64,000 bases of DNA from Acidimicrobiales bacterium (GTDB taxonomy: Bacteria > Actinomycetota > Acidimicrobiia > Acidimicrobiales > CATQHL01): contig OZ242194.1 of NCBI GenBank assembly GCA_965206165.1, positions 367,451 through 431,450 on the forward strand, given 5' to 3'. Positions 3,879-34,639 of this stretch are shown piece after piece. Under the pieces are notes generated by a model. That model saw nothing but the letters and a program-made list of their open reading frames with translations, made no database searches and had not been told where the DNA came from. The position numbers and the translations under genes were made by a program. How positions within the stretch are numbered: position 1 is the first letter of the stretch; each line of letters begins with the position of its first letter.

Positions 3879-3992
3879 CGCTTCGCTCCCCTGTCGATTC
3901 CCTGCCGCGCCCGTCGGCCGCCGACCACCTCGACCTCGCGGTCCGTGCCGCATGGTCTACGGCAGCCAGGAATGTTCTAGCGTGAGCAGCCG

Positions 3993-5753
3993 ATGGCCGC
4001 CAGCCGAGAAGTGCCCGTGTCGTTGCGCAGCGCCCGCTGGTTCGCGCCACGGGACCTCTTCGGCTTCCTGCATCGCACGGCGCTGCGCTCGGAGGGGCTG
4101 TCCGAAGCATCGATCTCGGGACGGCCCGTCATCGGCATCGCCAACTCGCACTCCGAACTGGTCAACTGCAACCTGCACTTCGGCGGGTTGATCGAGGCGG
4201 TCAAGCGCGGCGTACACCGAGCCGGGGGTCTGCCTCTGGAGTTCCCGACGATCTCGCTCAGCGAGATGCTGATGAAACCCACCACCATGCTGTACCGCAA
4301 CCTCATGTCGATGGATGTCGAGGAGATGATCCGGTCCAGCCCGCTGGACGCCGTCGTGCTTGTTGGCGGATGCGACAAGACCGTTCCGGCGCAGCTCATG
4401 GGCGCGGCCAGCGCCGGCGTGCCGGCCATCGCCCTCACCGGTGGACCCATGCAGCCGGGCAACTTCCGCGGCCGGCGGATCGGCGCCGGGACCGACATCT
4501 GGCGCTACACCGACGATCTGCGGGCCGGGCGGATGTCGGCGGAGGAGTACGCCGAACTGGAGGCCGCCACACGGCCCGGCGTCGGCCACTGCAGCGAGAT
4601 GGGCACCGCCTCCACCATGGCCACGCTCACCGAGGCGCTGGGCATGTCGCTGCCCGGCTCGGCGGCGGTACCTGCCACCGACGCCCGCCGCGGCGCCCTC
4701 GCCGAGGAGACCGGACGGCGCGCCGTCGAGATCGCACGCGAAGGGCTCCGCCCGGCCGATGTGCTGACCGTCGAGGCGCTGGAGAACGCCGTGACCGTGC
4801 TGGCGGCCGTGGCGGGCTCCACCAACGCCGTCCTGCACCTCATCGCGCTGGCCGGGCGGCTCGGGATCGATCTTCCACTGGACCGCTTCGACCGGATCGC
4901 CGCCCGCACCCCCGTGCTCACCAACATCCAACCCGCCGGCGAGCACCTGTTCGAGGACCTGCAACGGGCCGGCGGGGTCCCGGCCCTGCTCGGCGAACTG
5001 GCGCCGCTGCTGCACCTCGACGCCGTGACGGTGACCGGCCGGACGCTGGGCGAGAACATCCGCGGAGCCGAGGTCTGGGACCGCGACGTGCTCCGCTCGC
5101 TGGACGATCCGCTGCAACCCCCCGGCGGGCTGGCCGTGCTGCGTGGCTCCCTCGCCCCCGACGGCGCCGTCATCAAGGTGAGCGCCGCTGCGCCGGAATT
5201 GCTGCAGCACCGGGGACCCGCAGTCGTCTTCGATGGCATTGACGACCTGCTGGCACGCATCGACGATCCGGACCTGCCGGTGACCGCCGGCAGCGTGCTG
5301 GTGCTGCGAGGCGCCGGCCCCAAGGGAGCACCGGGCATGCCCGAATGGGGCATGCTGCCCATCCCCCGCAAGCTGCTGGCAGAGGGCGTGACCGACATGG
5401 TGCGCGTCTCCGACGCCCGCATGAGCGGCACCGGCTACGGCACCGTGGTGCTGCACGTCGCCCCCGAGAGCGCCGTCGGCGGCCCACTGCTGGCCGTGGA
5501 CGACGGCGACGAGATCCTCCTCGACGTGAGCAAGCGGCGCCTCGACCTCTGCGTTGCCCCGGAGGAGATCAGCCGGCGACTTGCCGGGCGGCCCCTACCC
5601 GATCCCCCGTACCGGCGGGGCTACGGCAGCATCTACCTGGAGCACGTGCTGCAGGCCGACGCCGGGGCCGACTTCGACGTGCTCCGCCACCGCCCCGGGG
5701 AGGACGACACAGAGCCACACGGACTCCTGGAAGGCTGGATCAGTGGCTGGTGA
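3993..5753 (+). CDS. IlvD/Edd family dehydratase (dihydroxy-acid or sugar-acid dehydratase)
   Basis: Family signatures VLVGGCDKTVPAQLMGA and PGVGHCSEMGTAST (Fe-S cluster cysteines). 586 aa, divergent from the SDR gene. Confidence 0.85.
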   Translation: MAASREVPVSLRSARWFAPRDLFGFLHRTALRSEGLSEASISGRPVIGIANSHSELVNCNLHFGGLIEAVKRGVHRAGGLPLEFPTISLSEMLMKPTTMLYRNLMSMDVEEMIRSSPLDAVVLVGGCDKTVPAQLMGAASAGVPAIALTGGPMQPGNFRGRRIGAGTDIWRYTDDLRAGRMSAEEYAELEAATRPGVGHCSEMGTASTMATLTEALGMSLPGSAAVPATDARRGALAEETGRRAVEIAREGLRPADVLTVEALENAVTVLAAVAGSTNAVLHLIALAGRLGIDLPLDRFDRIAARTPVLTNIQPAGEHLFEDLQRAGGVPALLGELAPLLHLDAVTVTGRTLGENIRGAEVWDRDVLRSLDDPLQPPGGLAVLRGSLAPDGAVIKVSAAAPELLQHRGPAVVFDGIDDLLARIDDPDLPVTAGSVLVLRGAGPKGAPGMPEWGMLPIPRKLLAEGVTDMVRVSDARMSGTGYGTVVLHVAPESAVGGPLLAVDDGDEILLDVSKRRLDLCVAPEEISRRLAGRPLPDPPYRRGYGSIYLEHVLQADAGADFDVLRHRPGEDDTEPHGLLEGWISGW

Positions 5754-7577: not shown

Positions 7578-9995
7578 TCAGCCGTCTGCGGCGCCGGCGA
7601 CGGACGCCTGGCGGGCGGTCTCGATGAGGGTCACCAGTTCGGTCGCGTCGGGATCGGTACTGAAGGCTTCGGCGACAGCCACCGCCTCCGCGGCCAGCAC
7701 GGACATGCCGGCGTCGGTGCCGCCCACGAATGGGCTGCCACGTAGCACCTCGGCGAATTCGGCCACCACCGCGGCCAGCCGGAAATACTCCCCGGCGGCG
7801 GCGAATGACGAGGCCACGTCGGTCTCGCCGATGCTCATCTCGACCTCGGTGATGGATCCGATGCGGGGACGCTCGTACCGCAGTGTCACCGTGGCAAGGG
7901 TGGTCGGACCACCCGACCCGTTGCTAGCGGACGACAGTTCGAGTTCGTAGAGAGCGGTGGAACTCTGCCCGAGGCCCACCTCACCGGCATCAACGGTGTT
8001 GTCTCGGAAGTCCTCGTCGGCCACGTCGCGGTTCTCGAAACCCAGGAGTCGGTACGAGCGCACCGTGTCCGGGTTGAACACCACCTGGATCTTGGCGTCC
8101 CGGGCCGCCACCGAGAGCAGGCTCGCCAGGTTGTCGACGAAGATCCTCCTGGCCTCACCGAAGCTGTCGATGTAGTGGTACGTACCGTCGGCAGTGTTGG
8201 CGAGTTGTTCCATGAGCGCATCGTTGAACGGGCCGAGCCCCACGCCGATGGTGGTCAGACCGATGTCACCTCGATCTCCGATCTCGGAGAGGATCTCGTC
8301 GGTGCGGGTGGCTCCCACGTTGGCGACGCCGTCGGAAAGCAGCATCACGAGCACCGACCAGCCCGCCTCCGCCTCGGCAAGCGCCAACTCGTAGCCGCGT
8401 ATCAGGCCCGCCTCGGCATTGGTGCTGCCCCTCGGAGTTACCTCGTCGCGAACCCGGCGAATGATCGACTCCCTGTTACCGGCCACATCGGTCGGCTCCA
8501 CGACCGTGGCCACCTGGTCGTCGTAGGACACGATGCCCACTCGGGTACCGTCCGGCAGGCCGCCGAGAAGCAGCTCCACGGCCTGGTGCGCCAACTCGAT
8601 CCGCTCGAGCAATTCCCCGCGGTAGCCGGCCGCAGCGCCCATCGAGCCCGACCGGTCCATCACCACGACGATGCTCTGGGGCGCTGCCACGTCGGCCAGA
8701 ACGTCGGGCGCCCGCACCCCCACGCGCAACAGGACGTGGCCGTCGGCGGCGAAGGGTGACGGGGCCGCCTCGGTGTCGATCACGAACTCGTCGGGCACCG
8801 GCTCGTAACCACCGTCGAAATAGTTGACGAACTCCTCGACGCGCACAGCCTCCTGCGGCGGCAACGTGCCACCGCGCAGGAAGTTCCGCGCCACCACGAA
8901 GGAGGCCGTGTCCACGTCGAGCGCGAACGTCGAGAGCGGATCCTCGTCAGTGCTCACGAAGGGGTTCACGCCGTAGTCCTCGAACGTGTTCCCGGAGCAA
9001 TCCGGACACCCGCTCGGGGGACGCAACTGCGGCGAGCCAGGCGCCGCGGCGGCACCCGGGGATCCACGCGTCGCGGCGGCACTTGGGGAGCCGCCGCCGG
9101 AGCCGCCGTCGTCCATCGCGTCGCCCATGTCGTAGTCGCCGCTCATGTCCTCGGTTGCGATGTCCTCGGGCGGACCTTGCGGCGACGTTGCAGCGGTTGT
9201 GGTGGTCGGTGTCGTTGCCGCGGCGGTTGTGCTCGTCGGGGAGGCCGCTGCCTGTTCCTGAGCCACCCGCGCTGCCTCAGCCGCCTCAGCTTCGGCTGCC
9301 GCCGCCCGCTCAAGAGCAAGCGCGGCCTCTGCCTGCGCGGCCGCGGCGGCCTCTTCCGCCAGTTCCGCGGCTGCCTCAGCCCTCGCAAGCTCCTCACTCG
9401 CGGTCGCGAACTCGTCACGCGCCATCTCGAACTCGGCACGCACAGCATCGGCAACTGCGTGCGCCTCCTCCGCCACCGCTCGAACGGCCGCTACCACCGC
9501 TTCGGCGGTCGCCATGTGCTCGCGAGCGGCTTCCAACTCCGCACCGGCCACGGCCGCGTCAGCAGCCGCTTCAGCCGCAAACCTCGCAAGCCTGTCGTCG
9601 GCCGCCGCCTGCACGGCTGCGACCTCCTGCTGGAGGGTCTCAAACTCCCGCTCCACCTGCACCATGGCGTCGCGAGCTCTCGCGGCCTCCTCACTTGCGG
9701 CTGCATGCTCGTCACGTGCCGCCTCGAGTTCAGCGCGCATCGCGTCAGCGGTTGCCTGCGCGTCGTCGGCACGCGCTCGGGCAGCCGCCGCGTCCGTGCG
9801 TGCCGCGGCCGCGGCAGCTTCAGCCTGCGCAACGGCGGCTCCGGCGTCCTCGGTCGAAGGGATGGTCACCGGCGACGCCTGGGTCGACTCCGACTCGGAG
9901 CTGCAGGCTCCTGCCAGAAGGCCCGCGACGGCAAGGCCGGCCACCATCGTCGCCAGCCGGGCGAGCCTTCGTACACGCAACTTGGCGATTGTCAT
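7578..9995 (-). CDS. YfbK-like von Willebrand factor A lipoprotein, paralog 1
   Basis: Signal/lipobox LLAGACSS and a long Ala/Glu-rich coiled-coil-like region. This is followed by NPFVSTDEDPLSTFALDVDTASF (vWA-associated N-terminal domain), MIDAS DRSGSM and a DUF3520-like C-terminus. Start set to ATG 9995, preceded by GAGGAG. Confidence 0.85.
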   Translation of the reverse strand: MTIAKLRVRRLARLATMVAGLAVAGLLAGACSSESESTQASPVTIPSTEDAGAAVAQAEAAAAAARTDAAAARARADDAQATADAMRAELEAARDEHAAASEEAARARDAMVQVEREFETLQQEVAAVQAAADDRLARFAAEAAADAAVAGAELEAAREHMATAEAVVAAVRAVAEEAHAVADAVRAEFEMARDEFATASEELARAEAAAELAEEAAAAAQAEAALALERAAAAEAEAAEAARVAQEQAAASPTSTTAAATTPTTTTAATSPQGPPEDIATEDMSGDYDMGDAMDDGGSGGGSPSAAATRGSPGAAAAPGSPQLRPPSGCPDCSGNTFEDYGVNPFVSTDEDPLSTFALDVDTASFVVARNFLRGGTLPPQEAVRVEEFVNYFDGGYEPVPDEFVIDTEAAPSPFAADGHVLLRVGVRAPDVLADVAAPQSIVVVMDRSGSMGAAAGYRGELLERIELAHQAVELLLGGLPDGTRVGIVSYDDQVATVVEPTDVAGNRESIIRRVRDEVTPRGSTNAEAGLIRGYELALAEAEAGWSVLVMLLSDGVANVGATRTDEILSEIGDRGDIGLTTIGVGLGPFNDALMEQLANTADGTYHYIDSFGEARRIFVDNLASLLSVAARDAKIQVVFNPDTVRSYRLLGFENRDVADEDFRDNTVDAGEVGLGQSSTALYELELSSASNGSGGPTTLATVTLRYERPRIGSITEVEMSIGETDVASSFAAAGEYFRLAAVVAEFAEVLRGSPFVGGTDAGMSVLAAEAVAVAEAFSTDPDATELVTLIETARQASVAGAADG

Positions 9996-10039
9996 GACCA
10001 CTCCTCGTCGATCGATGGGCCGTAGAGTTCCGGCACCCA

Positions 10040-10068
10040 TCAGACGATGCCGGCGGCCAATAAGTTCC
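10040..10068 (-). promoter_or_regulatory. Predicted ECF-sigma-type promoter of vWA paralog 1
   Basis: On the minus strand, GGAAC (10068-10064), a 17-nt spacer, then CGTCTGA (10046-10040), about 45 nt upstream of ATG 9995. The other two paralogs have the same motif and spacing. Confidence 0.55.
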
Positions 10069-10125
10069 CGAACATTCCGGGGCGCCCAACATCCTCGCAT
10101 CTTGAGGGCACGGCTCAGCGACCAC

Positions 10126-12300
10126 CTAGCCGAAGCGTTGCCGCGCCATCTCGATCAGATCGGCCAATTCTGTGGCGTCGGAATCACCCGGCAGGTCACG
10201 CGCTACGGCGCGGGACTCCTCGAGAAGGACAGTCATGTCCAGGTCGCGGTAGTCGACGAACGGGCTGCGCCGCAGCACCTCGGCGAATTCTGCCGCGACG
10301 GCGGCGAGCCGGAATTGTGGGTCGGCGGCCGCAAAGCTGTCGACCACGTCGCCGCGGCTGATGCTGCGATCGATCTCCCGAACCGACGCCCTGTCGGGGC
10401 GCTCGTAGCGCAGCGTCACGGTGGCAAGTTCCGCCGTCTCGCCCCTGGTGGCCCGCACTTCGAGTTCGTAGAGGGCGGTGGCGCTTTGCCCCAGGCCCAC
10501 CTCGCCGGCATCGACCGTGTTGTCGCGGAAGTCCTCGTCGGCAACATCACGGTTCTCGAAGCCCAGAAGCCGGTACGAGCGCACCGTCTCCGGGTTGAAC
10601 TCCACCTGGATCTTGGCATCGCGCGCCGCCAGGAGGAGCATGCCGCCCAGGTTGTCGCCGAAGATCCGGCGAGCCTGCTCCGAAGTGTCGATGTAGTGAT
10701 AGGTGCCGTCGGCCGAGTTCGCGAGTTGCTCCATGAGCACGTCGTTGAACGGACCGAGACCCACGCCGATCGTCGACAGGCCGATGTCGCCGCGTTCGCC
10801 GATCCGCTCCAGGATCTCCTCGGTGCTCGTGGCACCCACGTTGGCGACACCGTCGGACAGCAACAGCACCAGGACCGACCGCCCCGAGTCGGCCTCCGCG
10901 AGCGCCATCTCGAAGCCGCGCAACAGCCCCGCTTCAGTGTTGGTTCGCCCCTCGGGGATGACCTGCTCGCGCACCTGCTGCATGATTCGCGCCCTGTTGC
11001 CGGCCACGTCGGTCGGCTCGAGGATCGTGCGCACCTGCGTGTTGTAGGCCACGATGCCCACGCGCGTTCCGTTCGGCAGGCCGTCGAGCAGCACGTCCAC
11101 CGCCTTGTGCGCCAGCTGCATTCGCTCGAGGGGCTCGTCGCCGAAGTCGGCCATCTCACTCATGGAACCGGATCGGTCCAGCACGACGACCACCGCGTCC
11201 AGCACCGAGGAGCCGGCCAGCGCCTCGGGAGCCTGCACGCCCACACGGAGCAGCACGTAGCCGTCCCGGGCAAATGGCGACGGTGCCGCCGCCAAGTCGA
11301 TGACGAACTCGTCCCAGATGGACTCGTAGCCGCCGTCGAAGTAGTTCACGAACTCCTCCACGCGCACCGCCTCGGGAGGAGGCAACACGCCGCCCCGCAA
11401 ATGGTTCCGTGCCACCGCGTACGACGCCGTGTCCACGTCGAGTGCGAACGTCGACAGCGGATCGGCGGAGGTGTCGACAAACGGGTTGACGCCGTAGTCC
11501 TCGAAGATGTTCGACGAGCAACCCCAGCACTCTTCGGGAGAGGCCGGCTCCAGCGATTCCCCAGCCGATTCCCGCTGTGGCGACGACTCGGGGGCGGCCA
11601 TGGCCTCCTCCGGTGCTCCCATGTCCGCCATTGCATCAGCCATGTCGTCGGGGGTGACATCGATGACCGCAGCCTCCGCGGCAGGTGGCGGCGACGTCGT
11701 TGCGGGTGGCGGTGGCTCCGCTGCCGGAGGCGGCTCCGCCGGGGCCGGCGGTGGTGCCGCAGGTGCCGGGGCGGGCACCGCCGCCTGATTGCCGTCGACA
11801 GGCGCCGCAGCCGCCTGCGCGCTTGCCGCCTCTGCAGCGGACCTCGCCGCGTCGGCCTCCGCCTGCGCAGCCGCGACCTCGTTCCTCGCCGCGTCGGCCT
11901 CGGCCTGCGCAGCCGCGGCCTGAGAGCGCGCCGCGTCCGCTGCCGCCTGGGCGTCCGCCAGGGCGTCCTCCGCTGCCGAAACGGCCTCCTGGTTGCCTTC
12001 GGCGGTGGCCTGCGCCAGTGCTGCCGCCGCCATCGCAGCCTGTGCGGTCGCGAGGGCCTCCAACGCTGCCGCCATTTCGGCTGAACCCGCGGACCCGGCA
12101 GCTTCGGCCGGCGACTCAGGTGCGGCCGGCTCCGGCGCGGACGACTTCGACGGCGCTGGAGCGGGCTCGGGCACCGCCAAGTCCCCGCTCGGACCCGCCT
12201 CGGCGCCACAGCCCGCAAGCAGAGTGCCGACGGCCACCACGGCACCGACCGCTACCCAACGTCGCACGATTCGCCGCGATCGCAACTCGAACTGCTTCAT
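10126..12300 (-). CDS. YfbK-like von Willebrand factor A lipoprotein, paralog 2
   Basis: Lipobox LLAGCGA, Ala-rich repeats (AQAEADAAR...), a Pro-rich linker, NPFVDTSADPLSTFALDVDTASY, MIDAS DRSGSM and a conserved C-terminal region. RBS AGGAGGAAG before ATG 12300. Confidence 0.9.
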   Translation of the reverse strand: MKQFELRSRRIVRRWVAVGAVVAVGTLLAGCGAEAGPSGDLAVPEPAPAPSKSSAPEPAAPESPAEAAGSAGSAEMAAALEALATAQAAMAAAALAQATAEGNQEAVSAAEDALADAQAAADAARSQAAAAQAEADAARNEVAAAQAEADAARSAAEAASAQAAAAPVDGNQAAVPAPAPAAPPPAPAEPPPAAEPPPPATTSPPPAAEAAVIDVTPDDMADAMADMGAPEEAMAAPESSPQRESAGESLEPASPEECWGCSSNIFEDYGVNPFVDTSADPLSTFALDVDTASYAVARNHLRGGVLPPPEAVRVEEFVNYFDGGYESIWDEFVIDLAAAPSPFARDGYVLLRVGVQAPEALAGSSVLDAVVVVLDRSGSMSEMADFGDEPLERMQLAHKAVDVLLDGLPNGTRVGIVAYNTQVRTILEPTDVAGNRARIMQQVREQVIPEGRTNTEAGLLRGFEMALAEADSGRSVLVLLLSDGVANVGATSTEEILERIGERGDIGLSTIGVGLGPFNDVLMEQLANSADGTYHYIDTSEQARRIFGDNLGGMLLLAARDAKIQVEFNPETVRSYRLLGFENRDVADEDFRDNTVDAGEVGLGQSATALYELEVRATRGETAELATVTLRYERPDRASVREIDRSISRGDVVDSFAAADPQFRLAAVAAEFAEVLRRSPFVDYRDLDMTVLLEESRAVARDLPGDSDATELADLIEMARQRFG

Positions 12301-12346
12301 CGTCTTCCTCCTGCGGTTGCACGCGTCCAGCGCGTCCGATCACCCC

Positions 12347-12375
12347 TCAGACGACGCCGGAGCGGGAAAAGTTCC
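12347..12375 (-). promoter_or_regulatory. Predicted ECF-sigma-type promoter of vWA paralog 2
   Basis: Minus strand: GGGAACTTTTCCCGCTCCGGCGTCGTCTGAGGGGTG, i.e. GGAAC (12375-12371), N17, CGTCTGA (12353-12347). A small palindrome ACGCG-n5-CGCGT lies in the leader (12321-12335). Confidence 0.6.
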
Positions 12376-12536
12376 CGTGCGTTCCCACGATTTCGCGAGA
12401 GCGGTCACGGCGGCACGGACGACACGCCGACCGCCGGCGATACCTCCGGCAGCCGAGCTCCCACGAGAAGAGCCCCCTGCCGGACGGAGGCGCATCCGGC
12501 GGGGGGCTCGCAGGGGGGATCGTGTCGATTCTGGGT

Positions 12537-12571
12537 GAGGGGGGCGGCCCCTCCACAGGACCGCCCCCCTC
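12537..12571 (-). terminator. GC-rich terminator-like hairpin downstream of vWA paralog 3
   Basis: Perfect 11-bp arms gaggggggcgg (12537-12547) and ccgcccccctc (12561-12571) with a 13-nt loop, about 30 nt after stop 12604. There is no clear U-tract, so it is called terminator-like only. Confidence 0.5.
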
Positions 12572-12603
12572 GCGGCCGCGCCGTCGCGCAGCCGGTTTGC
12601 CGC

Positions 12604-14601
12604 CTAGCGGGCAGCCCGCTGGGCGGTCTCGATCAGCTGGGCCAGCTCCTCGGCGTCCCGATCACGACGTAGGTCGTCGGCCGCGTACCAGGCCTCCTCG
12701 GAGAGCAGGCCCATGTCGGCATCCCGGTACTCCACGAACGGGCTGCGGCGCAGCACCTCGGCGAACTCTGCTGCCACCGCGGCGAGCCGGAAGTGCGGGC
12801 TGGCCGAGGCGAACGACCTGGCAATATCGACGCCGCTGATGGTCTCCTCGATCTCGGTGATCGAGCCGCGGCGGGGGCGCTGGTAGCGCAGCGTGGCCGT
12901 CGCCAGCCAATCACGGTCGCCCCGCTCGCGGTCCCGGCGGGCCAACTCCAACTCGTACAGGGCGGTGGAACTCTGCCCCAGGCCCACCTCGCCGGCATCG
13001 ACAGTGTTGTCGCGGAAGTCCTCGTCGGCGACGTCACGGTTCTCGAACCCCAGCAGCCGGTAGGAGAGCACCGTGTCGGGGTTGAATTCCACCTGGATCT
13101 TGGCGTCCCGCGCTGCCAGCGCCAGCAGGCTCACGATGTTGGCACCGAAGATACGGCGCGCCTCCTGCGTGCTGTCGATGTAGTGGTAGGTGCCGTCGGC
13201 GGAGTTGGCGAGTTGCTCCATGAGCACGTCGTTGAACGGTCCGAGCCCCACGCCGATGGTGGTCAGACCGATGTCGTCACGGTCGCCAATCTCGCGCAGA
13301 ATGTCGTCGGTGCGGGTGGCGCCCACGTTCGCAACGCCGTCGGAGAGCAGCATCACCAGAACGTCACGACCCCTGCGGGACTCCCCAAGCGCCATGTCAT
13401 AGCCAGCTAGGAGTCCGGCCTCGGCGTTCGTACTGCCTCGCGGCCAGACGTCGGCCCGCACCCGGCGGATGATCTGATCCCGGTTACCGGTCACGTCGGT
13501 CGGCTCGATAATCGTCTCCACCCTGTCGTCGTAGGAGACGATGCCCACACGGGTGCCGTCCGGCAGGCCGTACAGGAGCAAATCGACCGCCTCGTGCACC
13601 AGCTCGATCCGCTCGAGCGATTCCCCTCCGTAGCCGGCCGTCTCGCCCATGGAACCCGATCGGTCGATCACCACGATCACACTGTCGGGAATCACGACAT
13701 CGGCCAGCACGTCGGGGGCCTGCACGCCCACTCGCAGCAACACGTAGCCGTCGCGACTGAACGGCGAGGGCGCCGCCTCCATGTCGATGACGAACTCGTC
13801 CCACTCCGGCTGGTAGCCACCGTCGAAGTAGTTGACGAACTCTTCCACGCGCACCGCCTCCATCGGGGGCAGCACGCCGCCCTGCAGATGGTTCCGGGAC
13901 ACCACGTACGAAGCAGTGTCCACGTCCAGCGCGAATGTCGACAGCGCGTCGCGGTACGTGTCCACGAACGGGTTCACGCCGTAGTCCTGGAAGATGTTGG
14001 AGGAGCATCCCCAGCACTCCCCCGGCCGGGTCGGCTCCACCGAACCCCACGCCGACTCCGCCGCAGCGGGCGCCGCCGCGGCTGCCGCCCGCGAGCTATC
14101 AGCCTGAGCCTGCGCCGAAGAAGCCTCGGCCCGCGCCGCGGAGGCCTCGGCCTGCGCCATCGACGCCTCGGAGCGCGCGGCGTCCGCGGCCGCCTGGGCC
14201 GAAGCCAAGCCAGCCTCTGCCGCTGCTACGGCCTCCTGATTGCCCTCGGCCGTGGCCTGCGCCAAATCCGCAGCGGCCTGAGCAGCCTCTGCCACGGCCT
14301 GCGCCTCGGCGAACACTTCCCGAGCCCGCTGTGGAGCCGCCGGTGGCGCGGGTTCCGGTGAGGGTGCCGGCGCAGCGTCTTGCCACTCGGCCGCCGGCGC
14401 TGGCGCGGGTTCCGGTGAGGGTGGTGGTGCTGCCGGAGACCCCGACCTCGTTCGGGCAGATTCCGCAGCCGCCGACGGCGACGCGGCCGCGGAATCATCG
14501 TCAGAACTGCAGGCCGTCGCCAGCAGGCTCGCCACCACTAGGGCGCCAATTCCCAACCAGAGCCTGGTGGAGATCCGGGATTTCGAATCGAACTGTTGCA
14601 T
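12604..14601 (-). CDS. YfbK-like von Willebrand factor A lipoprotein, paralog 3
   Basis: Lipobox LLATACSS, an Ala/Pro-rich region, NPFVDTYRDALSTFALDVDTASY, MIDAS DRSGSM and a conserved C-terminus. RBS AAGGAGGAG before ATG 14601. Confidence 0.9.
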   Translation of the reverse strand: MQQFDSKSRISTRLWLGIGALVVASLLATACSSDDDSAAASPSAAAESARTRSGSPAAPPPSPEPAPAPAAEWQDAAPAPSPEPAPPAAPQRAREVFAEAQAVAEAAQAAADLAQATAEGNQEAVAAAEAGLASAQAAADAARSEASMAQAEASAARAEASSAQAQADSSRAAAAAAPAAAESAWGSVEPTRPGECWGCSSNIFQDYGVNPFVDTYRDALSTFALDVDTASYVVSRNHLQGGVLPPMEAVRVEEFVNYFDGGYQPEWDEFVIDMEAAPSPFSRDGYVLLRVGVQAPDVLADVVIPDSVIVVIDRSGSMGETAGYGGESLERIELVHEAVDLLLYGLPDGTRVGIVSYDDRVETIIEPTDVTGNRDQIIRRVRADVWPRGSTNAEAGLLAGYDMALGESRRGRDVLVMLLSDGVANVGATRTDDILREIGDRDDIGLTTIGVGLGPFNDVLMEQLANSADGTYHYIDSTQEARRIFGANIVSLLALAARDAKIQVEFNPDTVLSYRLLGFENRDVADEDFRDNTVDAGEVGLGQSSTALYELELARRDRERGDRDWLATATLRYQRPRRGSITEIEETISGVDIARSFASASPHFRLAAVAAEFAEVLRRSPFVEYRDADMGLLSEEAWYAADDLRRDRDAEELAQLIETAQRAAR

Positions 14602-14647
14602 GATCGCTCCTCCTTCGTTTGCACGCGCTCAGCGCGTCGATCACCCC

Positions 14648-14676
14648 TCAGACGCCCGCTACCGGAGAAAAGTTCC
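14648..14676 (-). promoter_or_regulatory. Predicted ECF-sigma-type promoter of vWA paralog 3
   Basis: Minus strand: GGAAC (14676-14672), N17, CGTCTGA (14654-14648). Leader hairpin ACGCGC-tca-GCGCGT at 14623-14637. Confidence 0.6.
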
Positions 14677-16834: not shown

Positions 16835-18001
16835 ATGCACCGCGGCGAGACCGGCCACTACCGGGAAACGGCCTACAGGGGAGAGAAAGTCCGCGCATTC
16901 GTCCCGGCACCTCTCCCTCCGGTGCCCTCGCTCGTGCTCGACGGACCGCTGCTCCGAGTTCTCGAAGCCGCAAACCTTGCTCTCGGTCGCCTCGACGGCA
17001 TTTCGGCCCTGCTTCCCGACAAGTCGCTCTTCCTCTACCACTACGTGCGCAAGGAGGCCGTCCTCTCCTCGCAGATCGAGGGGACACAGTCTTCATTCGC
17101 AGATCTCTTACAACACGAGCGACACAATGCCCCAGGGGTTCCCGACGACGACATCACCGAGGTGTCCAACTACGTCGCAGCGTTGGAGCACGGACTGAAG
17201 CGGCTACGGGAGGACGACTTTCCGCTGTCGAACCGGCTCCTCCGGGAAGTCCACGGGGTCCTGCTCGCGTCCGGGCGTGGCAGCACCAAGACGCCCGGCG
17301 AGTTCCGACGCTCGCAGAACTGGGTCGGCGGAACCCGGCCCGGCAATGCCTCCTTCGTCCCGCCACCGGAAGACGAAGTGCAGAATTGCATGGCCTCGCT
17401 TGAGTTGTTCCTCCACTCGATCGACGACGACCTGCCGACTCTGGTGCGGGTCGGTCTGGCACACGTGCAGCTCGAGACAATTCACCCGTTCCTGGACGGC
17501 AACGGCCGGGTGGGGCGGCTGCTCATCACGTTCCTGCTCTGCCATGCCGGAGTGCTGCAGGACCCGCTGCTGTACCTGAGCCTCTATCTCAAGGAGCACC
17601 GCGACGAGTACTACCGGCTGCTCAACGAGGTCCGCCTCAGCGGCGACTGGGAATCATGGCTGGCATTCTTCCTGGAAGGCGTTCGCGTCACCGCGGAGGG
17701 CGCCTTTTCCACTGCGATGCGCCTGTCGGAGATGTTCAGGACCGACAGGACACGCATCTCGTCGCTCGGCCGCCAGGCCAACTCCGCCCTGCGGGCGCAC
17801 GACGCGCTCATGACCTCGCCGTTCCGCACTATCCCCGACGTCTGCCGCCACTCCGGGCTCTCCTACCCCGGCGCGGCAGCCGGTATGAACCGACTCGTCG
17901 AACTCGACATCGCGACGGAGATCCCAGGCGATCGCCGCGGTCGAGTCTTCGTCTACGACCGCTACCTGAGCATCCTTGCCGAAGGAACAGAGCCATTGTG
18001 A
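16835..18001 (+). CDS. Fic family protein (class II, auto-inhibited)
   Basis: Fic core HPFLDGNGRVGR. N-terminal inhibitory motif S-x-x-x-E-G (SSQIEGT) lies in the same polypeptide. C-terminal wHTH-like tail. Confidence 0.85.
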   Translation: MHRGETGHYRETAYRGEKVRAFVPAPLPPVPSLVLDGPLLRVLEAANLALGRLDGISALLPDKSLFLYHYVRKEAVLSSQIEGTQSSFADLLQHERHNAPGVPDDDITEVSNYVAALEHGLKRLREDDFPLSNRLLREVHGVLLASGRGSTKTPGEFRRSQNWVGGTRPGNASFVPPPEDEVQNCMASLELFLHSIDDDLPTLVRVGLAHVQLETIHPFLDGNGRVGRLLITFLLCHAGVLQDPLLYLSLYLKEHRDEYYRLLNEVRLSGDWESWLAFFLEGVRVTAEGAFSTAMRLSEMFRTDRTRISSLGRQANSALRAHDALMTSPFRTIPDVCRHSGLSYPGAAAGMNRLVELDIATEIPGDRRGRVFVYDRYLSILAEGTEPL

Positions 18002-24024: not shown

Positions 24025-25827
24025 TCAGGCCGGCGGGATCACCGGGACGAGGATGTAGTTGCGGTGCTCGGGGCTGAAGTGCAGGGTGACTTCGTTCTCG
24101 AAGATCTCCGGCGGGCGGTCGCGGGGATCGTTGTGGAGGAACGGTCCGCAGCCGCGGAGTTCGTTCTTGAAGTTGGACAGCATCATGCCGGAGGTGTCGC
24201 CGCCGTACTCGTAGTCCCGCCCGCGCACGCTGAAACCGATGCGGTAGCCGGGCGGCACCACGATGCATGTGGGCCAGATCTCGATGTCCAACTCGTAGAC
24301 CTCGCCGGGCACCAGCGGCTGCGCGTCGGCCTCGAGATGGGTGTGATACGGCCGCCACGGCTCGGACAACTCGGGGTCCAACCGGCGATGGCTGGCCCGC
24401 AGCCAGCCCTGGGCGATCGGCGTGTGCGGGTCGATCGCCCCCATGAAGGTCACTTCGGTGCCGTCGGGGTCGAACACCCGGTACACCACGAACAGGTCGG
24501 CGTCAGCCGTCGACGACGACACGAACAGCTTCGCCGCCAGCGGTCCGGTGATCTCCATCTCCTCGGTGGTCGGCGCGGTGAGGAACGTCAGGCCGTCGCC
24601 CGTCGCCTCGTAGCTGAGCGTGTCGGTCCGGGCGCAGGGGTTGAAGCGCAGTTGCCCGTTGGCGTGCAGGTACATCTGGCGCCAGTCGGTGCGCGGGATC
24701 GGCCAGTCGTCCTCGGCCCGCTCCACGAAACCGTCGACGTGGCGCACCTGCAGGAGTACCCGCGGCTGGCTGTCCCAGCCGGTGTCGGCGCCCTTGAGGT
24801 AGTGCCCGAAGAAGCGCTTCTGCAGGTCCACCCCGTAGTCGGTGTAGTACTCGGTCCAGTGCTCGATGCCATGGACCTCGAGCCAGCACTCCGGTGACGC
24901 GGAGCGGGTGTAGGCCTCGAAGTTGCCCCGCGGGTGCAGGCCCTGGCCGCCCCAGTTGGCCGACGACAGGAACGGCACGGCCACCTTGTCCCACACGGGC
25001 GAGCGGTCGGCGTGGTACTCGTCGTCGAAGGGATGCGCACAGATGTCGTCGCCGAAGGCGCAGCGGTTGGCGGCCAATTCCTCCTCGCTGAACGTGGGGG
25101 GACCCGACACCAACTCGCCCGTGTTGGAGTTGACCGAACCCCGGGTGCCCAGACCGTGCTGCACCGTCTTGACCTGCATGTCGTACCAGTTGTCCCAGAA
25201 CGTGCAGAGGATGCCGCCGTGGTGGGTGGAGTCCCGGTACCACTCCGCGGCACCCTCCCACGGGATCATGGCCACGAGGTGCGGGGGCTGGCGGGAGGCC
25301 ACGGCCCACTGGTTCATGGCGTAGTAGGAGACCCCCGAGATCCCGATCTTGCCATCGCTCCAGGGTTGGACGGCCGCCCACTCGATGCAGTCGTACAGGT
25401 CCTGCGTCTCCCGGGGAGAGAAGTGGTCGATGTAGCCCGGTGAGCGGCCGCAGCCGCGGGCGTCGATCCGCAGGCACACGTAGCCGTCGGGCACCCACTT
25501 CTCGGGGTCGCACACCTCCCAGCTCTGGTACTTGTTGGTGGAGCCGGCGACCACGTCGGGATGCTCTTCGGCCATCCGGTTCCAGGCACTCGGATAGCCC
25601 TCCTGGAAGGCGAGGCCCTTGGCGTAGGGGCCGTACGACAGCAGCACCGGATAGCGCCCCCCGTCGTCGGGACGGTAGACGTCGGCGCGCAGGACGAGGC
25701 CGTCGTCCATCTCGATGGGGACGTCCCAGTCGACGCGCATCCCATCACGCACCTCGCTGACCGTCTGGTCGTCAGCAGGCAAGGCGTCAGTGTCCATGGC
25801 GTCAGTGTCCATGGCGTTATCGGTCAT
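24025..25827 (-). CDS. CocE/NonD family hydrolase (S15 X-Pro dipeptidyl-peptidase-like)
   Basis: 600 aa from ATG 25827 (RBS GGAGGGAG). YPVLLSYGPYAKG and nucleophile region GISGVSYYAMNQW. The 1202-aa ORF-track call is a read-through into the antisense of the next gene. Confidence 0.8.
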   Translation of the reverse strand: MTDNAMDTDAMDTDALPADDQTVSEVRDGMRVDWDVPIEMDDGLVLRADVYRPDDGGRYPVLLSYGPYAKGLAFQEGYPSAWNRMAEEHPDVVAGSTNKYQSWEVCDPEKWVPDGYVCLRIDARGCGRSPGYIDHFSPRETQDLYDCIEWAAVQPWSDGKIGISGVSYYAMNQWAVASRQPPHLVAMIPWEGAAEWYRDSTHHGGILCTFWDNWYDMQVKTVQHGLGTRGSVNSNTGELVSGPPTFSEEELAANRCAFGDDICAHPFDDEYHADRSPVWDKVAVPFLSSANWGGQGLHPRGNFEAYTRSASPECWLEVHGIEHWTEYYTDYGVDLQKRFFGHYLKGADTGWDSQPRVLLQVRHVDGFVERAEDDWPIPRTDWRQMYLHANGQLRFNPCARTDTLSYEATGDGLTFLTAPTTEEMEITGPLAAKLFVSSSTADADLFVVYRVFDPDGTEVTFMGAIDPHTPIAQGWLRASHRRLDPELSEPWRPYHTHLEADAQPLVPGEVYELDIEIWPTCIVVPPGYRIGFSVRGRDYEYGGDTSGMMLSNFKNELRGCGPFLHNDPRDRPPEIFENEVTLHFSPEHRNYILVPVIPPA

Positions 25828-25992
25828 CGTGTCGCTCCCTCCGGTCGGCCGGCGGCGAGTGTAGATCACCGCTCTCCGCCCTCGGCAAAGTGACTCGTTC
25901 GCTCCCGGCATCCGGAGCGAGGGTGCCCACGACGGCACACCGGCGGGCGAACTCGCCTCGGCGAGGCCGATCGGCGGGTCGAGGTCACTAGC

Positions 25993-27549
25993 GTGAGAGG
26001 CATGGCTGGTTGGCTCATCGCAGTGACGGTCATCGGGGGACTGCTCGTGGCGGTCGCCCTCTACGACATGGTCCAGCGCCGGCACACGATCCTGGCGAAT
26101 TTCCCGATCATCGGGCACTTCCGCTACCTGCTCGAGAGCATCGGCCCGGAGCTGCGCCAGTACATCGTCACCAGCAATGACGAGGAGCGACCCTTCAACC
26201 GGGCGCAACGCCGCTGGGTCTACGCCTCGGCCAAGCGGCAGAATCCGAACTTCGGGTTCGGCACCGACCAGGATCTCGACCAGACCGGCTACCTCATCGT
26301 CAAGCACTCCGCCTTCCCGCACCTCGACGAGATCGACGAGGCAGCCACGTTGCCGTGTGGCAAGGAACTGGGCGCCTGGCGGGATCGCCCCGGTCGCTTC
26401 CGGCCGGCATCGGTGGTGAACATCTCCGGCATGAGCTACGGCTCGCTCAGCGGGCCGGCTGTCGAGGCGCTGAACATCGGCTCCCAACTCGCCGGCTGCC
26501 TGCACAACACCGGAGAGGGAGGGATCTCCAAGTACCACCGGCGTGGCGGCGAACTCATCTACCAGATCGGCACCGGGTATTTCGGCTGCCGCAACCCCGA
26601 CGGCACGTTCAGCCTGCCGCTGCTGATGGAGACGGTCGGTTCCGCGCCGGTGCGGGCGATCGAGGTCAAGCTCAGCCAGGGGGCCAAGCCGGGCCTCGGG
26701 GGCATGCTGCCCGGCGTCAAGGTCACGCCGGCGATCGCCGCGGCACGCGGCGTACCGGTGGGCAAGACGGTGGAGAGCCCGAACGCGCACAGCGCCTTCG
26801 GCAACGTGGACGGCCTCATCGACTTCACCGAGCAACTCGCGGATGTCACCGGCCTGCCGGTGGGTATCAAGTCCGCCGTCGGGTCCGGGCGGTTCTGGGA
26901 CGAGCTGGCGCGCCGCATGTCCGAGCGCGGCGAGGGACCCGACTTCATCACCATCGACGGGGGTGAGGGCGGCACGGGTGCGGGGCCGCTGGTCTTCACC
27001 GACCACGTGGCGCTGCCGTTCCGGCGGGGATTCGCCCGCGTCTACTTGACGTTCGTCGCCCATGACCTGCACCAGAAGGTGGTGTTCATCGGCGGCGGCA
27101 AGTTGGGCTTCGGCGCCGACGGCCTGGCTGCCATGAACCTGGGCGCCGACCTCCTGAACGTGGGGCGCGAGGCGCTGCTGGCGATCGGCTGCGTCCAGAC
27201 CCAGCGCTGTCACACGGGGCGTTGCCCCACCGGCGTCACGACGCACAGCCGCTGGTTGACCCGTGGCCTGGATCCGGCGCTCAAGTCCGTTCGCTGCGCC
27301 AACTACATCATGAGTCTGCGGGCCGAACTGTTGCAGCTGGCGCACGCCTGCGGGCAGCCCCACCCGGCACTGGTGCCGCCGACAGCTCTGGAACTTCTCT
27401 ACGAGGAACCCGTCAAGCGGGTCGACCTCTGCCAGCACTACCTCTACCCTCCCGACCTGGCGCGCCTGGGCCCCGAGCAGGCAGCGACCGCCACCGGGCT
27501 CTGCGCCCGTCCCGCCGGGGGTGGAGAAATTCCCGTTGCCCTCCCGTGA
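25993..27549 (+). CDS. FMN-binding glutamate synthase-related protein (GltS domain 2-like)
   Basis: N-terminal TM helix. Motifs SGMSYGSLSGPAVEALN, NTGEGGIS and IDGGEGGTGAGP. Confidence 0.8.
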   Translation: MRGMAGWLIAVTVIGGLLVAVALYDMVQRRHTILANFPIIGHFRYLLESIGPELRQYIVTSNDEERPFNRAQRRWVYASAKRQNPNFGFGTDQDLDQTGYLIVKHSAFPHLDEIDEAATLPCGKELGAWRDRPGRFRPASVVNISGMSYGSLSGPAVEALNIGSQLAGCLHNTGEGGISKYHRRGGELIYQIGTGYFGCRNPDGTFSLPLLMETVGSAPVRAIEVKLSQGAKPGLGGMLPGVKVTPAIAAARGVPVGKTVESPNAHSAFGNVDGLIDFTEQLADVTGLPVGIKSAVGSGRFWDELARRMSERGEGPDFITIDGGEGGTGAGPLVFTDHVALPFRRGFARVYLTFVAHDLHQKVVFIGGGKLGFGADGLAAMNLGADLLNVGREALLAIGCVQTQRCHTGRCPTGVTTHSRWLTRGLDPALKSVRCANYIMSLRAELLQLAHACGQPHPALVPPTALELLYEEPVKRVDLCQHYLYPPDLARLGPEQAATATGLCARPAGGGEIPVALP

Positions 27550-27640
27550 GACCGGCCCCCGTCGCAGGTGGGCGCTCGCCGCCACCGGGCTCTGCGGCCG
27601 TCCCGCCGGGGGTGGAGAAACTCCCGTTGCCATCTCGTGA
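27488..27640. repeat. 62-bp direct duplication (27488-27549 and 27579-27640)
   Basis: 58 of 62 positions are identical by eye, with a period of 91 bp. Copy 1 is the 3' end of the GltS-like gene and copy 2 is the 5' region of the YHYH gene. Confidence 0.85.
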
Positions 27641-28874
27641 CAGAGGCGTCCACCGTGTGCAGGCGCTTGCCGTCGCCGGGCTGCTGCTGGGCGGCGGATG
27701 CGCCGCAGCCGCCTCTCCCGCGGCGCTCAACGCCGACAGCCGGGCCGCCCTGCTCGATGTCTGGCTGATTCCGGAGACCGAAGAGGCGCACGACGCTCCG
27801 AGCAGCGAGGATGCCCGCGACCGGGGCCTCGGGGGCGGGCGGTTCGGTCTGGACGATGAGTTCGAGCTGTCCGGTGATGTCGACCTCATTGTTCTGGAAG
27901 GAATCCCCGATCCTCCCGAGCCGACGCCGCTGGCGATCCACGTCACCTCGGTGGAGACCCTCACCGTCGGCGGCACGGGGTATGCCGACGTGTACGTGGC
28001 GGTCGAAGGGGTCGACACGGACCGCGTCGCCGGCCGTTTCCCCCTCGAGCCCGTGCCGGCGTCCGCACCGGCGGCCACGACTCTTGGGCCGGTCGGGCTC
28101 TGGGTGACCGGTGCCGCGTTCTACAACTGGAGCGACGGAGGGAGTCACCGCGGCGAGGGGATCTGGCGGGCGGTGGCGCCCGGCGCCGTGGGTGACGACG
28201 GGTTCTCCTGCGCCGGACCGACCGCCGACGAGCTGATGCCGCACGTGTACCCCGAGTGCCTGGCCCTGCATCTCGGCGACGACAGCGCCCGGCACTCCCC
28301 CGTCTACGGCTTCGCAGCCGACGGCTACCCGGTGCACGGTCCCTGGGCCGACCTGGAGCTGCCGGCGAGGAGTTCGTGGCGGATCCGGGACTACGAGACC
28401 GCCGGCTCGGCCACCGGTTGCAGCGAGCCCGGCCGCCGTACGTGCCTGCTGGTCAACCCCCTGGACCCGACGGCCGGGACGGTGCGTGCTCCCGCTGCGG
28501 GACCCGACACCGGGGAGGTTCCCGCGGGGGCGTTCTTCGAGGACTACTGGTTCGACATCGGCCTCGACGACGGTTCACCGCACGCCCTGGACGCCTTCAA
28601 CGGTCACGCCCATGACGAGTTTGGCTACCACCACCACATCACCCGGATCCAGAACGGCGACGGGAGCTTCACCGACGTGTTCCCGTACATCCTCGGCCCC
28701 TGGTTCCGCGGTGAACTGCACCCCGGAGCCGTGAGCCCGGGCGGCCCGAAGCTCCCCGACACAACGGGCACAACCGGCACAACACGGGTAGTCGAAGCGC
28801 CAGAGTCCCCCGAAGCCCCCGGCCCTGCCACCGAGCCCCCCTTCGTCTGCGCCCCTCGCCTGGGAGACTGCTGA
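27612..28874 (+). CDS. YHYH domain-containing lipoprotein
   Basis: Lipobox LLLGGGC and C-terminal FNGHAHDEFGYHHH (YHYH motif). The start is uncertain (GTG 27612, TTG 27627 or GTG 27657). The ORF-track N-terminal extension overlaps the previous gene. Confidence 0.7.
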   Translation: MEKLPLPSRDRGVHRVQALAVAGLLLGGGCAAAASPAALNADSRAALLDVWLIPETEEAHDAPSSEDARDRGLGGGRFGLDDEFELSGDVDLIVLEGIPDPPEPTPLAIHVTSVETLTVGGTGYADVYVAVEGVDTDRVAGRFPLEPVPASAPAATTLGPVGLWVTGAAFYNWSDGGSHRGEGIWRAVAPGAVGDDGFSCAGPTADELMPHVYPECLALHLGDDSARHSPVYGFAADGYPVHGPWADLELPARSSWRIRDYETAGSATGCSEPGRRTCLLVNPLDPTAGTVRAPAAGPDTGEVPAGAFFEDYWFDIGLDDGSPHALDAFNGHAHDEFGYHHHITRIQNGDGSFTDVFPYILGPWFRGELHPGAVSPGGPKLPDTTGTTGTTRVVEAPESPEAPGPATEPPFVCAPRLGDC

Positions 28875-30980: not shown

Positions 30981-31148
30981 GGCGAAATCGCGCCGGCGCC
31001 GTCCCCCGGCGTCCCCACCTCGGTTGTTGGCGGTTCGTGCGGTGCTGTTGTCAGCGTCGGAGGGGGCGAAATCGCGCCGGCGCCGTCCCCCGGCGTCCCC
31101 ACCTCAGCTATTGGCGGTTGGTGCGGTGCTGTTGTCAGCGTCGGAGGG
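30981..31148. repeat. 84-bp tandem repeat x2
   Basis: Units 30981-31064 and 31065-31148 differ at 4 positions by eye. Unit 2 contains the last codons and the stop (31135-31137) of the HNH gene. Confidence 0.85.
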
Positions 31149-34632: not shown

Positions 34633-34639
34633 CCGACTG

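Follow-up and report, generated by a model that had tools for sequence, protein, structure and literature searches.

What is the role of three neighbouring genes that encode almost the same binding head on three different stalks, and what switches these genes on? We analysed a 64,000-nucleotide stretch of an Acidimicrobiales genome (assembly GCA_965206165.1, contig OZ242194.1, positions 367,451 to 431,450), here called the window, in which three consecutive minus-strand open reading frames (ORFs), g1, g2 and g3, encode proteins with an export signal and a C-terminal head of the YfbK type that contains a von Willebrand factor type A (VWA) domain. We suggest that these proteins are envelope lipoproteins of a monoderm bacterium, induced by an extracytoplasmic function (ECF) sigma factor, in which one binding head with a metal ion-dependent adhesion site (MIDAS) is carried by three stalk designs. 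To this reading as a whole we give about even weight.

The YfbK-type vWA family has thousands of members (5,877 clusters at 50% identity, E <= 1e-30) and no known function, and the only foothold so far is a bioinformatic tie to one group of ECF anti-sigma factors. In the literature on YfbK, DUF3520 and vWA anti-sigma factors we found a remark on this group, ECF289, and structural comparisons, and no functional study; a comparative study of sponge Actinobacteriota makes no mention of vWA or ECF. The locus combines known elements, i.e., a YfbK-type head, an ECF-type promoter, a coiled-coil spacer and tandem paralogy. What is new is a predicted ECF promoter, conserved throughout the class, in front of a free-standing lipoprotein head, which provides an experimental handle on the sigma factor, the inducing stress and the ligand. 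The array is also a natural experiment, in which a single head sits on stalks of three designs, which change by whole heptads from strain to strain, and can inform about spacer length and geometry in monoderm envelopes. The ECF identity of the promoter, the presence of the head in ECF289 anti-sigma factors and the variation of the array from one to three copies among relatives go beyond the initial annotation of this DNA.

Three paralogues share one vWA head

The three genes are as follows.

7578-9995, minus strand: g1, paralogue of 805 aa, start MTIAKL, Cys31 (ORF, Pfam, orthologue length)
10126-12300, minus strand: g2, paralogue of 724 aa, lipobox LLAGC, Cys31 (ORF, Pfam, alignment)
12604-14601, minus strand: g3, lipoprotein-type vWF_A/VWA/YfbK_C protein of 665 aa, lipobox Cys31 (ORF, Pfam, alignment)

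In all three the third-position G+C is high, as in real genes. The g2 protein is identical to the public protein P0001, and the orthologues of g3 start with MQQFDSKSR...LLATAC. The ORF of g1 is open up to 10100; its in-frame ATGs at 10100 and 10040 fall before or inside the promoter described below, and the public orthologue P0109, which shares a contig with P0001, is also 805 aa long. The initial annotation had listed the same three same-strand ORFs with 806, 724 and 665 aa, and the 806 had counted the stop codon.

The heads occupy the C-terminal part of each protein.

7581-9008, minus strand: g1 head, residues 330-805
10129-11535, minus strand: g2 head, residues 256-724
12607-14016, minus strand: g3 head, residues 196-665, with a CxxC motif, the vWF_A N-domain, a VWA domain with MIDAS, and the YfbK_C beta-sandwich and helical bundle

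All three proteins contain the Pfam domains vWF_A (PF12450, 78-85 bits, cutoff 25), VWA (PF00092, 54-60 bits, cutoff 23.8) and YfbK_C (PF12034, 111-116 bits, cutoff 25), in this order and above the gathering thresholds, so the earlier assignment to the YfbK-like vWF_A/VWA/DUF3520 family is correct. From the CxxC to the C-terminus the three align gap-free over ~470 aa, with NPFV...LSTFALDVDTAS and DRSGSM invariant; a conserved C-terminal region had been noted before, at ~430 aa, and is real and longer than that. In a comparison of 109 orthologues the three groups share one invariant residue at 254 of 464 head positions, and 35 positions are group-specific, with a small cluster of the latter directly after the DRSGSM loop. 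The MIDAS residues (DxSxS/T/D) are found at 447-451/525/555 in g1, 375-379/453/483 in g2 and 313-317/391/421 in g3, and the three paralogues and 64 relatives all share the motifs DRSGS, G(S/R)TN and LSDG. The MIDAS is therefore predicted to be competent for metal binding.

Each protein starts with a basic n-region and a hydrophobic core, followed by a cysteine at residue 31 in the lipobox LLAGAC (g1), LLAGC (g2) or LLATAC (g3). By a pattern rule, the sole basis of the lipobox call, this is the signal peptide of a bacterial lipoprotein, closed by a lipobox with its invariant Cys at +1. Nearly every full-length orthologue retains the n-h-c signal and Cys31, and the lipobox signal reported initially is thereby confirmed. 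The products are probably lipidated.

Structurally, the model of g3 (mean pLDDT 66) has the ArnA/ArnB complex (8s05) as its best Foldseek match, with E = 4e-16, see also the further matches to ITIH1 (6fpy), a Catenulispora vWA protein (4fx5), an ArnB paralogue (5a8j), PitA, SpaC and Sec23/24 (1m2v). For 8s05, 5a8j, 4fx5 and 6fpy the E-values range from 1e-13 to 4e-16 at TM-scores <= 0.48, and the order of secondary-structure elements in g3 fits the ArnB/Sec23-like plan. Sequence searches of the PDB gave marginal vWA matches only. The likeness to ArnB of Sulfolobus, the Sec23-Sec24 core and ITIH1 is distant, with identities of 13-17% and TM-scores of 0.34-0.48 on the target, and ArnB and Sec23/24 are cytoplasmic whereas the window proteins are exported. 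The predicted structure of YfbK has already been assigned to this vWA/beta-sandwich/helical-bundle plan in a 2026 paper on ArnAB (PMC12852372).

E. coli YfbK has the same three-domain head in the same order and an exported or lipoprotein-type N-terminus. In comparison, the window proteins add long Ala-heptad stalks, a CxxC before the head, the tandem triplication and the ECF-type promoter; upstream of E. coli yfbK the region is AT-rich and the ECF-type motif is absent. The proteins also resemble vWA pilus adhesins (PitA 7w6b, SpaC 6m48, RrgA-type) and CglB in that an exported, MIDAS-bearing head is held away from the cell. CglB is a myxobacterial lipoprotein cited as a vWA surface adhesin (PMC12204202, where the text writes 'AglZ'). 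However, the window proteins differ from the pilus adhesins in their flanking domains and have no sortase signal, pilin or Cna-type domain. The models for marine proteobacterial sortase targets (TIGR03788, 34-38 bits, cutoff 551) and for BatA (20 bits, cutoff 380) score below their cutoffs, and the PADLOC defence models have no match to the vWA lipoproteins.

Eukaryotic CLCA proteins are secreted regulators and not channels. The KEGG-style label 'Ca-activated chloride channel homolog, YfbK' would make g1-g3 ion-homeostasis factors, and YfbK is listed among the chloride channel proteins in a genome paper on sponge Acidimicrobiia (PMC12263773). We find this hardly credible: apart from the signal peptide none of the three proteins has a membrane-spanning segment. 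The chloride channel family itself (CLCA/hCaCC, TIGR00868) gives a weak match of 24.6 bits, against a cutoff of 900.85 and to the VWA domain only, and is effectively excluded by domain content.

A predicted ECF promoter precedes each copy

GGAAC at -35 and CGTC at -10 form the general signature of ECF sigma factors. The motif GGAAC-N17-CGTC has exactly three matches in the window, all on the coding strand and 45-50 nt before the three start codons, and its extended form CGGGAACTT-N16-CGTCTGA is present upstream of each gene.

10042-10068 (core 10043-10068), minus strand: predicted ECF-sigma-type promoter of g1, starting ~58 nt past the g2 stop codon
12349-12375 (core 12350-12375), minus strand: predicted ECF-sigma-type promoter of g2
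14650-14676 (core 14651-14676), minus strand: predicted ECF-sigma-type promoter of g3, GGAAC-N17-CGTCT, extended CGGGAACTT...CGTCTGAGGGGTG

To follow the motif among relatives, 79 loci encoding homologues (cited below by L numbers) were fetched, and all 52 that come from Acidimicrobiia were scanned. The motif with 17-nt spacing lies upstream of 56 of the 58 homologue copies in these 52 loci, where the background rate would give ~0.008 per window; of the two exceptions one is cut by a contig end and the other has 18-nt spacing. Between genera the spacer sequence is wholly different and both boxes are invariant. Both boxes, a spacing of 16-17 nt, the position near the gene and the conservation in orthologues agree with an ECF promoter. 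From these sequence features we infer that the motif is an ECF-sigma-type promoter and that the three genes depend on such a sigma factor. No sigma-70-type promoter was found upstream of g1, g2 or g3 in a consensus scan, whose sole match in the region is inside the coding sequence of g2.

The boxes could instead serve another factor, e.g., a repressor, with the genes transcribed by the housekeeping sigma factor or as a single operon. No cognate sigma was found in the loci searched, and the g1 promoter lies 58 nt past the g2 stop with no strong hairpin between, so read-through is possible at this point. We nevertheless hold this explanation to be quite improbable, as it has to account for two boxes and a 17-nt spacing that are conserved across the families of the class around a variable spacer, for their match to the general ECF -35/-10 pattern, and for the recurrence of the motif before anti-sigma and SIMPL genes in sigma loci (see below). 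The missing sigma-70-like promoter and the strong hairpin between g3 and g2 speak against it as well.

That each copy has its own promoter-like motif and leader had been proposed initially and holds for all three genes, and the accompanying guess that the genes are stress-induced gains support from a class-wide conserved motif of the ECF-sigma type. The view that separately retained regulation is unusual is not upheld. In Acidimicrobiia the ECF promoter belongs to the ancestral state of the gene, so each duplicate carried its own promoter along, and a separate regulation inherited in this way needs no special explanation.

Two further arrangements of the motif were seen. In some Aldehydirespirator-type loci (L010, L012, L016, L028, L030, L051; ~9380-9500) two motifs stand in tandem upstream of the gene, ~30 nt apart, and the second overlaps the leader hairpin. 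In L073 (7581-9539, Anaerolineales) the vWA lipoprotein follows two paralogous membrane/lipoprotein-type ORFs, the second of which is preceded by GGAAC-N17-CGTC.

A conserved hairpin in the leader

Every Acidimicrobiia copy has a small stem-loop of 5-7 bp between the -10 box and the GGAGG ribosome-binding site, ~13-18 nt past CGTC.

10019-10034, minus strand: g1 leader hairpin, weaker and divergent, GCCG-N8-CGGC (-7.2 kcal/mol, z = -0.6)
12321-12335, minus strand: g2 leader hairpin, ACGCG-CTGGA-CGCGT
14623-14637, minus strand: g3 leader hairpin, ACGCGC-TGA-GCGCGT, between the predicted transcription start and the GGAGGAG ribosome-binding site

The stems are clade-specific and keep their pairing (ACGCGC/GCGCGT, GGGCGC/GCGCCT, GGACGC/GCGTCC, GGACA/TGTCC, GGATGC/GCATCC). 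In the Poriferisodalis group the hairpin is longer and two-tiered, and the g1 orthologues in L001 and L002 have a different small hairpin. A table of 25 distinct hairpins shows canonical pairing throughout the five inner pairs (125 of 125 cells) and three to five types of pair at each position, and when the 3' arm is slid by one base 23 of 125 are canonical; these cells were tabulated from arms picked by RNAfold in each sequence, which biases the table towards pairing, and carry no formal test. A MAFFT/RNAalifold consensus fold of the leaders failed, with two clades aligned one column out of register. Rfam 15 has no family for the leader and gave only a chance sub-threshold snoRNA match inside a coding region. 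The leader hairpin is thus well supported, short of formal proof, and its simplest function would be that of a 5'-terminal stabiliser.

A larger structure separates g3 from g2.

12537-12571, minus strand: terminator-like hairpin, 15-bp perfect G+C stem, 33 nt past the g3 stop, without a U tract

The region folds at -63.5 kcal/mol, and there is nothing like it between g2 and g1. A consensus terminator scan found no U-tract terminator with a T run. The hairpin at 12537-12571 probably ends the transcription of g3 and insulates g3 from g2.

The stalks differ in length and design

The regions between the membrane anchor and the head are of different lengths, with N-terminal regions of 331 (g1), 259 (g2) and 197 aa (g3) that contain 35-39% Ala together with Glu, Gln and Pro.

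9243-9854, minus strand: g1 stalk, helices 48-147 and 154-251, modelled as an antiparallel hairpin (AlphaFold2, pLDDT 85-93)
11803-12084, minus strand: g2 stalk, Ala-rich heptad region, residues ~73-166, with 21/42-bp tandem repeats
14083-14337, minus strand: g3 stalk, one predicted helix, residues 89-173, Ala-rich and heptad-periodic (AlphaFold2, Fourier test)
8997-9008 (g1), 11518-11529 (g2), 14005-14016 (g3): CxxC before the head

In g3 a Pro/Ala-rich stretch, the Ala-rich helix and a short linker follow each other. In g2 the Ala-rich helix lies between a short PAPAP spacer and a Pro-rich segment (167-210), after which comes an Asp/Met-rich segment (218-227, DDMADAMADM). In g1 a short spacer leads into ~200 Ala/Glu-rich residues, a Thr/Pro-rich part and then an Asp/Met/Gly-rich segment.

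Several observations point to a coiled-coil heptad. In a Fourier test the hydrophobicity power exceeds that of shuffled controls at a period of 3.5 (p = 0.002) and 2.33 (p < 0.001) in g3, at 2.33 (p < 0.001) in g2 and at 7 (p = 0.014) in g1, and does not exceed them at 3.6; Ala occupies the a/d-like positions. The DNA of the N-terminal regions contains tandem repeats of period 21 and 42, for example a 21-bp repeat at 14101-14158 in g3, and g2 orthologues with heads 93-96% identical differ in length by AAAAQAE-type insertions in multiples of 7 residues. Together with the predicted long helices this bears out the picture, drawn initially, of a length-variable, Ala-rich helical N-terminus on a conserved head. 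The indels are recent, but they respect the heptad, so the outcome named initially as a refutation, recent indels that lack such a pattern, was not observed.

For g1 the two equal-length helices (pLDDT ~90), and Foldseek matches of the model to antiparallel coiled-coil hairpins (SMC arms, chemoreceptors and RipA, over ~200 columns and with non-significant E-values), suggest a hairpin stalk. An Ala-rich heptad helix directly after the anchor is also known from Lpp (an Ala-zipper), the N-terminal hairpin of RipA, the coiled coil of PcsB and domain II of TolA. Of these, RipA (6ewy) and PcsB (4cgk) were matched by the g1 stalk model, at a non-significant E >= 0.09, and there is no sequence homology. 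The stalks, above all those of g2 and g3, probably oligomerise, and they may span the wall.

Are the differences between the stalks of any use to the cell? They could be neutral, produced by slippage and unequal recombination in the 21-bp repeats of a low-complexity spacer that only needs to be helical and soluble. The indels do coincide with the 21/42-bp tandem repeats, the composition of the stalks is kept and their sequence is not, omega is below one in every stalk comparison (0.25-0.85), and in L006 g1 has decayed to a remnant. Drift of this kind would on the other hand not be expected to keep the heptad register and a significant periodicity, nor a core segment (LAQATAEGNQEAV...) in which the stalks of g2 and g3 are 57% identical. 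The architectures (a single helix or a hairpin; Pro-rich and Asp/Met-rich segments present or absent) are each retained across the orthologue groups, and the two N-terminal cassettes of g1 (see below) look like recombinational exchange rather than drift alone. Neutrality of the stalk differences is thus a realistic possibility, to which we give roughly one part against two.

The linkers have some features of their own. The Asp/Met-rich low-complexity segments are found in g1 (9108-9149, DMSGDYDMGDAMDD) and g2 (11620-11649, DDMADAMADM) and not in g3. The CxxC ahead of the head is nearly invariant in the Acidimicrobiia clade and absent from the Chloroflexota homologues. The segments and the CxxC together could be a metal- or redox-sensitive element.

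Evolution of the array

In a distance tree g1, g2 and g3 form three orthologue clades, which all belong to a single Acidimicrobiales sub-lineage; in other genera the fetched locus contains one copy. Within the sub-lineage, all three copies are found in L001 and L002, g3 and g1 in L004, and g3, g2 and a remnant of g1 with unchanged flanking synteny in L006; L003, L005 and L007 have g3 only.

13863-14289 of L006: g1 remnant, intact ECF-type promoter and a 139-codon stalk/linker fragment, without signal peptide and head

Because there are three orthologue clades and partial copy sets among the relatives, the triplication is lineage-specific, old relative to the genomes compared and repeatedly eroded.

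Evolutionary rates were estimated with the Nei-Gojobori method. Omega of the head is 0.10-0.18 for g2 and g3 and 0.27-0.31 for g1, i.e., the head is under purifying selection. Omega of the stalk is 0.25-0.85, and the stalk dN is 3-10 times the head dN. For example, between g1 of the window and of L001 the stalk has dN 0.35 and dS 0.74, and the head dN 0.035 and dS 0.12. In all comparisons omega stays below 1 and positive selection was not found, so that a diversification of the paralogues in this sense, proposed initially, is not supported. There are, in addition, two types of N-terminal cassette in g1, with different signal peptides on nearly identical heads (dN ~0.03), which points to recombinational exchange or repeat misalignment and not to point substitution. 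Gene-conversion tracts between the paralogues were not found; their third-position identity is at most 0.80.

Relationship to ECF sigma systems

Which sigma factor could recognise the promoters? In two Dehalococcoidia loci, L065 and L078, the order is motif, vWA lipoprotein, SigM-like ECF sigma factor, motif, zf-HC2 anti-sigma factor, motif, and a SIMPL/'oxidative stress defense' protein. The vWA homologue is the first gene of the cluster and is, as in the window, a lipoprotein without an anti-sigma domain. The best NCBIfam match of the L065 sigma factor is SigM, at 143.9 bits and below the 190-bit equivalog cutoff. The outer part of the zf-HC2 anti-sigma factor in L065 and L078 is long, Pro-rich and without a recognisable domain.

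More distant members of the L065 sigma family, in L080 and L081, keep the sigma and anti-sigma genes, and in L080 also SIMPL. The motif precedes the anti-sigma gene in both, and L080 has a second copy after the anti-sigma gene, ahead of a transposase insertion that precedes SIMPL. No vWA gene was found next to the sigma relatives in L080 and L081; the vWA gene is a facultative member of the sigma neighbourhood. Because the motif is kept at these sigma loci without a vWA gene, GGAAC-N17-CGTC is plausibly the target site of the L065-type sigma family.

In L065 the sigma gene is itself behind a good sigma-70-type promoter, TTGACC-N17-TAATAT (11353-11440), and not behind the ECF motif, which is found inside the end of the sigma gene, ahead of the anti-sigma gene. 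This layout suggests sigma-driven negative feedback rather than classical autoregulation.

Sigma genes were searched in the window and the 79 loci by tblastn with RpoE, SigW and the L065 and L006 sigma factors, and by a hidden Markov model scan of six-frame ORFs. The positives were L065, L078 and an unrelated SigK-like gene in L006 alone. A database search with the L065 sigma factor retrieved Chloroflexota-like proteins alone and none from the source contig of the window; no orthologue in the window's genome was located in this way. The L006 gene belongs to a minus-strand group (3941-4870 and upstream) of an ECF sigma factor, a downstream anti-sigma-like ORF and an adjoining fasciclin-domain protein, without the GGAAC-N17-CGTC motif; it resembles the mycobacterial SigK-RskA-MPT70/83 arrangement.

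A second link to sigma factors comes from the head itself, as the head family is the extracytoplasmic part of the ECF289 anti-sigma factors (Casas-Pastor et al. 2021, PMC7826278). Among the 149 nearest 50%-identity cluster representatives, 17 carry the zinc-finger anti-sigma motif HxxxCxxC at the N-terminus, in many others a transmembrane helix comes after a short conserved cytoplasmic segment (MKEQFDRH.DRLT...), and 33 have lipobox-like signals. The ECF289 proteins and the window proteins thus have homologous extracytoplasmic heads, and both are associated with ECF sigma factors. They differ in their anchor, which is a lipobox Cys here and a transmembrane helix after a cytoplasmic domain in ECF289, and the window genes are not beside a sigma gene. 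With ~13 residues before the hydrophobic core, no HxxxCxxC and a lipobox instead, g1, g2 and g3 have no cytoplasmic domain and therefore fall outside the definition of an anti-sigma factor; the extracytoplasmic head alone is common to both.

It can be speculated from this that the proteins are inputs and not outputs of the ECF pathway. They would be detached anti-sigma sensor heads that capture an envelope or external signal with the vWA domain and act on a membrane anti-sigma factor without a folded outer domain, and their genes, as is usual for anti-sigma genes, would be under the sigma factor's own promoter in a feedback loop. This is the main rival to our proposal, and a somewhat unlikely one. 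Its strength is the fusion of the head to anti-sigma segments in many relatives (the 17 of 149 with HxxxCxxC and many more with the short cytoplasmic motif and transmembrane helix), as described for ECF289, and the position of the L065/L078 lipoprotein directly upstream of a sigma factor and of an anti-sigma factor whose Pro-rich outer part has no domain. However, the gene is unlinked to sigma and anti-sigma genes in all 52 Acidimicrobiia loci, seen beside an ECF sigma gene solely in Dehalococcoidia (L065/L078), and the L080/L081 relatives have no vWA neighbour, hence the L065 linkage is local. Triplication, free loss of copies and a stalk evolving ten times faster than the head would also be unexpected of a signalling component. 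An extended version, a 'split' ECF anti-sigma factor whose sensor heads, fused to it in other phyla, are here detached, placed under the sigma factor's own promoter and triplicated, and sample the ligand at different envelope depths by their stalk geometries, with the leader stem-loop, not described before, adding post-transcriptional control, is less probable still and we consider it unlikely.

Proposed mechanism

We suggest that the three genes are instead outputs of the response. An ECF sigma factor encoded elsewhere in the genome, probably SigM-like as beside the homologue in the Dehalococcoidia genome, would be freed from its anti-sigma factor and would transcribe each gene from its own GGAAC-N17-CGTC promoter. 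Each mRNA would begin with the short conserved stem-loop, most likely as protection of the 5' end. The products would be exported and lipid-anchored through Cys31 at the outer face of the cytoplasmic membrane, where the Ala-rich heptad stalk, followed by Pro/Thr-rich linkers, would keep the head off the membrane. The stalk would be a single helix of ~85-95 residues in g2 and g3, probably oligomerising, and an antiparallel hairpin with ~100-residue arms in g1. The head, nearly identical in all three, would be an ArnB/Sec23-like module of vWA, beta-sandwich and helical bundle, whose complete MIDAS may use a metal ion to bind an acidic residue on a protein ligand. Because the head is nearly the same and the stalks differ, the paralogues would differ mainly in how the head is presented and not in the binding target.

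The ligand may be a host matrix or a component of the cell envelope. Adhesion to a host is suggested by the names of related lineages (Candidatus Poriferisodalis, Poriferisocius, Poribacteria) and the likeness to vWA adhesins only; the lineages of many of the closest relatives take their names from an association with sponges, and a role in host contact may be worth testing.

Several points weigh against this proposal. ECF sigma and anti-sigma genes are absent from the 64-kb window, and none of the Acidimicrobiia loci has one within 10 kb of the gene. A count of three motif matches is unremarkable, as 15 of 100 shuffles of the window have >=3 matches, and because the match count itself is not unusual the case for the promoter rests on position and conservation. 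The residue at lipobox position -3 in g1 and g3 is Ala and not Leu. AlphaFold2 gave monomer models of moderate confidence (mean pLDDT 66 and 72), and monomer models are unable to show oligomeric coiled coils. Finally, a hairpin stalk in g1 would return the chain towards the membrane, which is a poor fit to the idea that a longer stalk lifts the head higher.

Surroundings of the array

The genes flanking the array are metabolic or unrelated: two short-chain dehydrogenases/reductases (SDRs), a dihydroxy-acid dehydratase, an acyl-CoA synthetase, an acyl-CoA dehydrogenase, a glyoxalase and a Fic protein. The last is a Fic/DOC protein with a Fic_N domain at 16835-18001, three genes upstream of g3, and between it and g3 are the divergently transcribed acyl-CoA dehydrogenase and glyoxalase genes. 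A protein with a SWIM zinc finger and DUF6880 is encoded at the window start (315-2162).

The remaining window contains further SDRs, a peptidase and a probable defence island of lower G+C. The stretch 33900-54700 has a G+C of 0.55-0.66, compared with ~0.69, carries defence-type genes and is probably a horizontally acquired defence island.

33946-34734: DUF2290
37566-39779: PLD/NgoFVII-like nuclease
43116-46535: type I restriction R subunit
53132-54664: Schlafen/AlbA_2 and HATPase_c_4 protein

Directly ahead of the island is a DUF222 and HNH endonuclease gene (31135-32769); such genes are often multi-copy and mobile in actinobacteria. In the minus-strand ORF at 24025-27726 (1,233 codons) the S15 peptidase match is confined to the C-terminal half (residues 675-1187), and a plus-strand ORF at 25894-27549, with a third-position G+C of 0.88, overlaps the N-terminal half. 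The region 24025-27726 is thus probably a shorter peptidase gene and a separate plus-strand gene.

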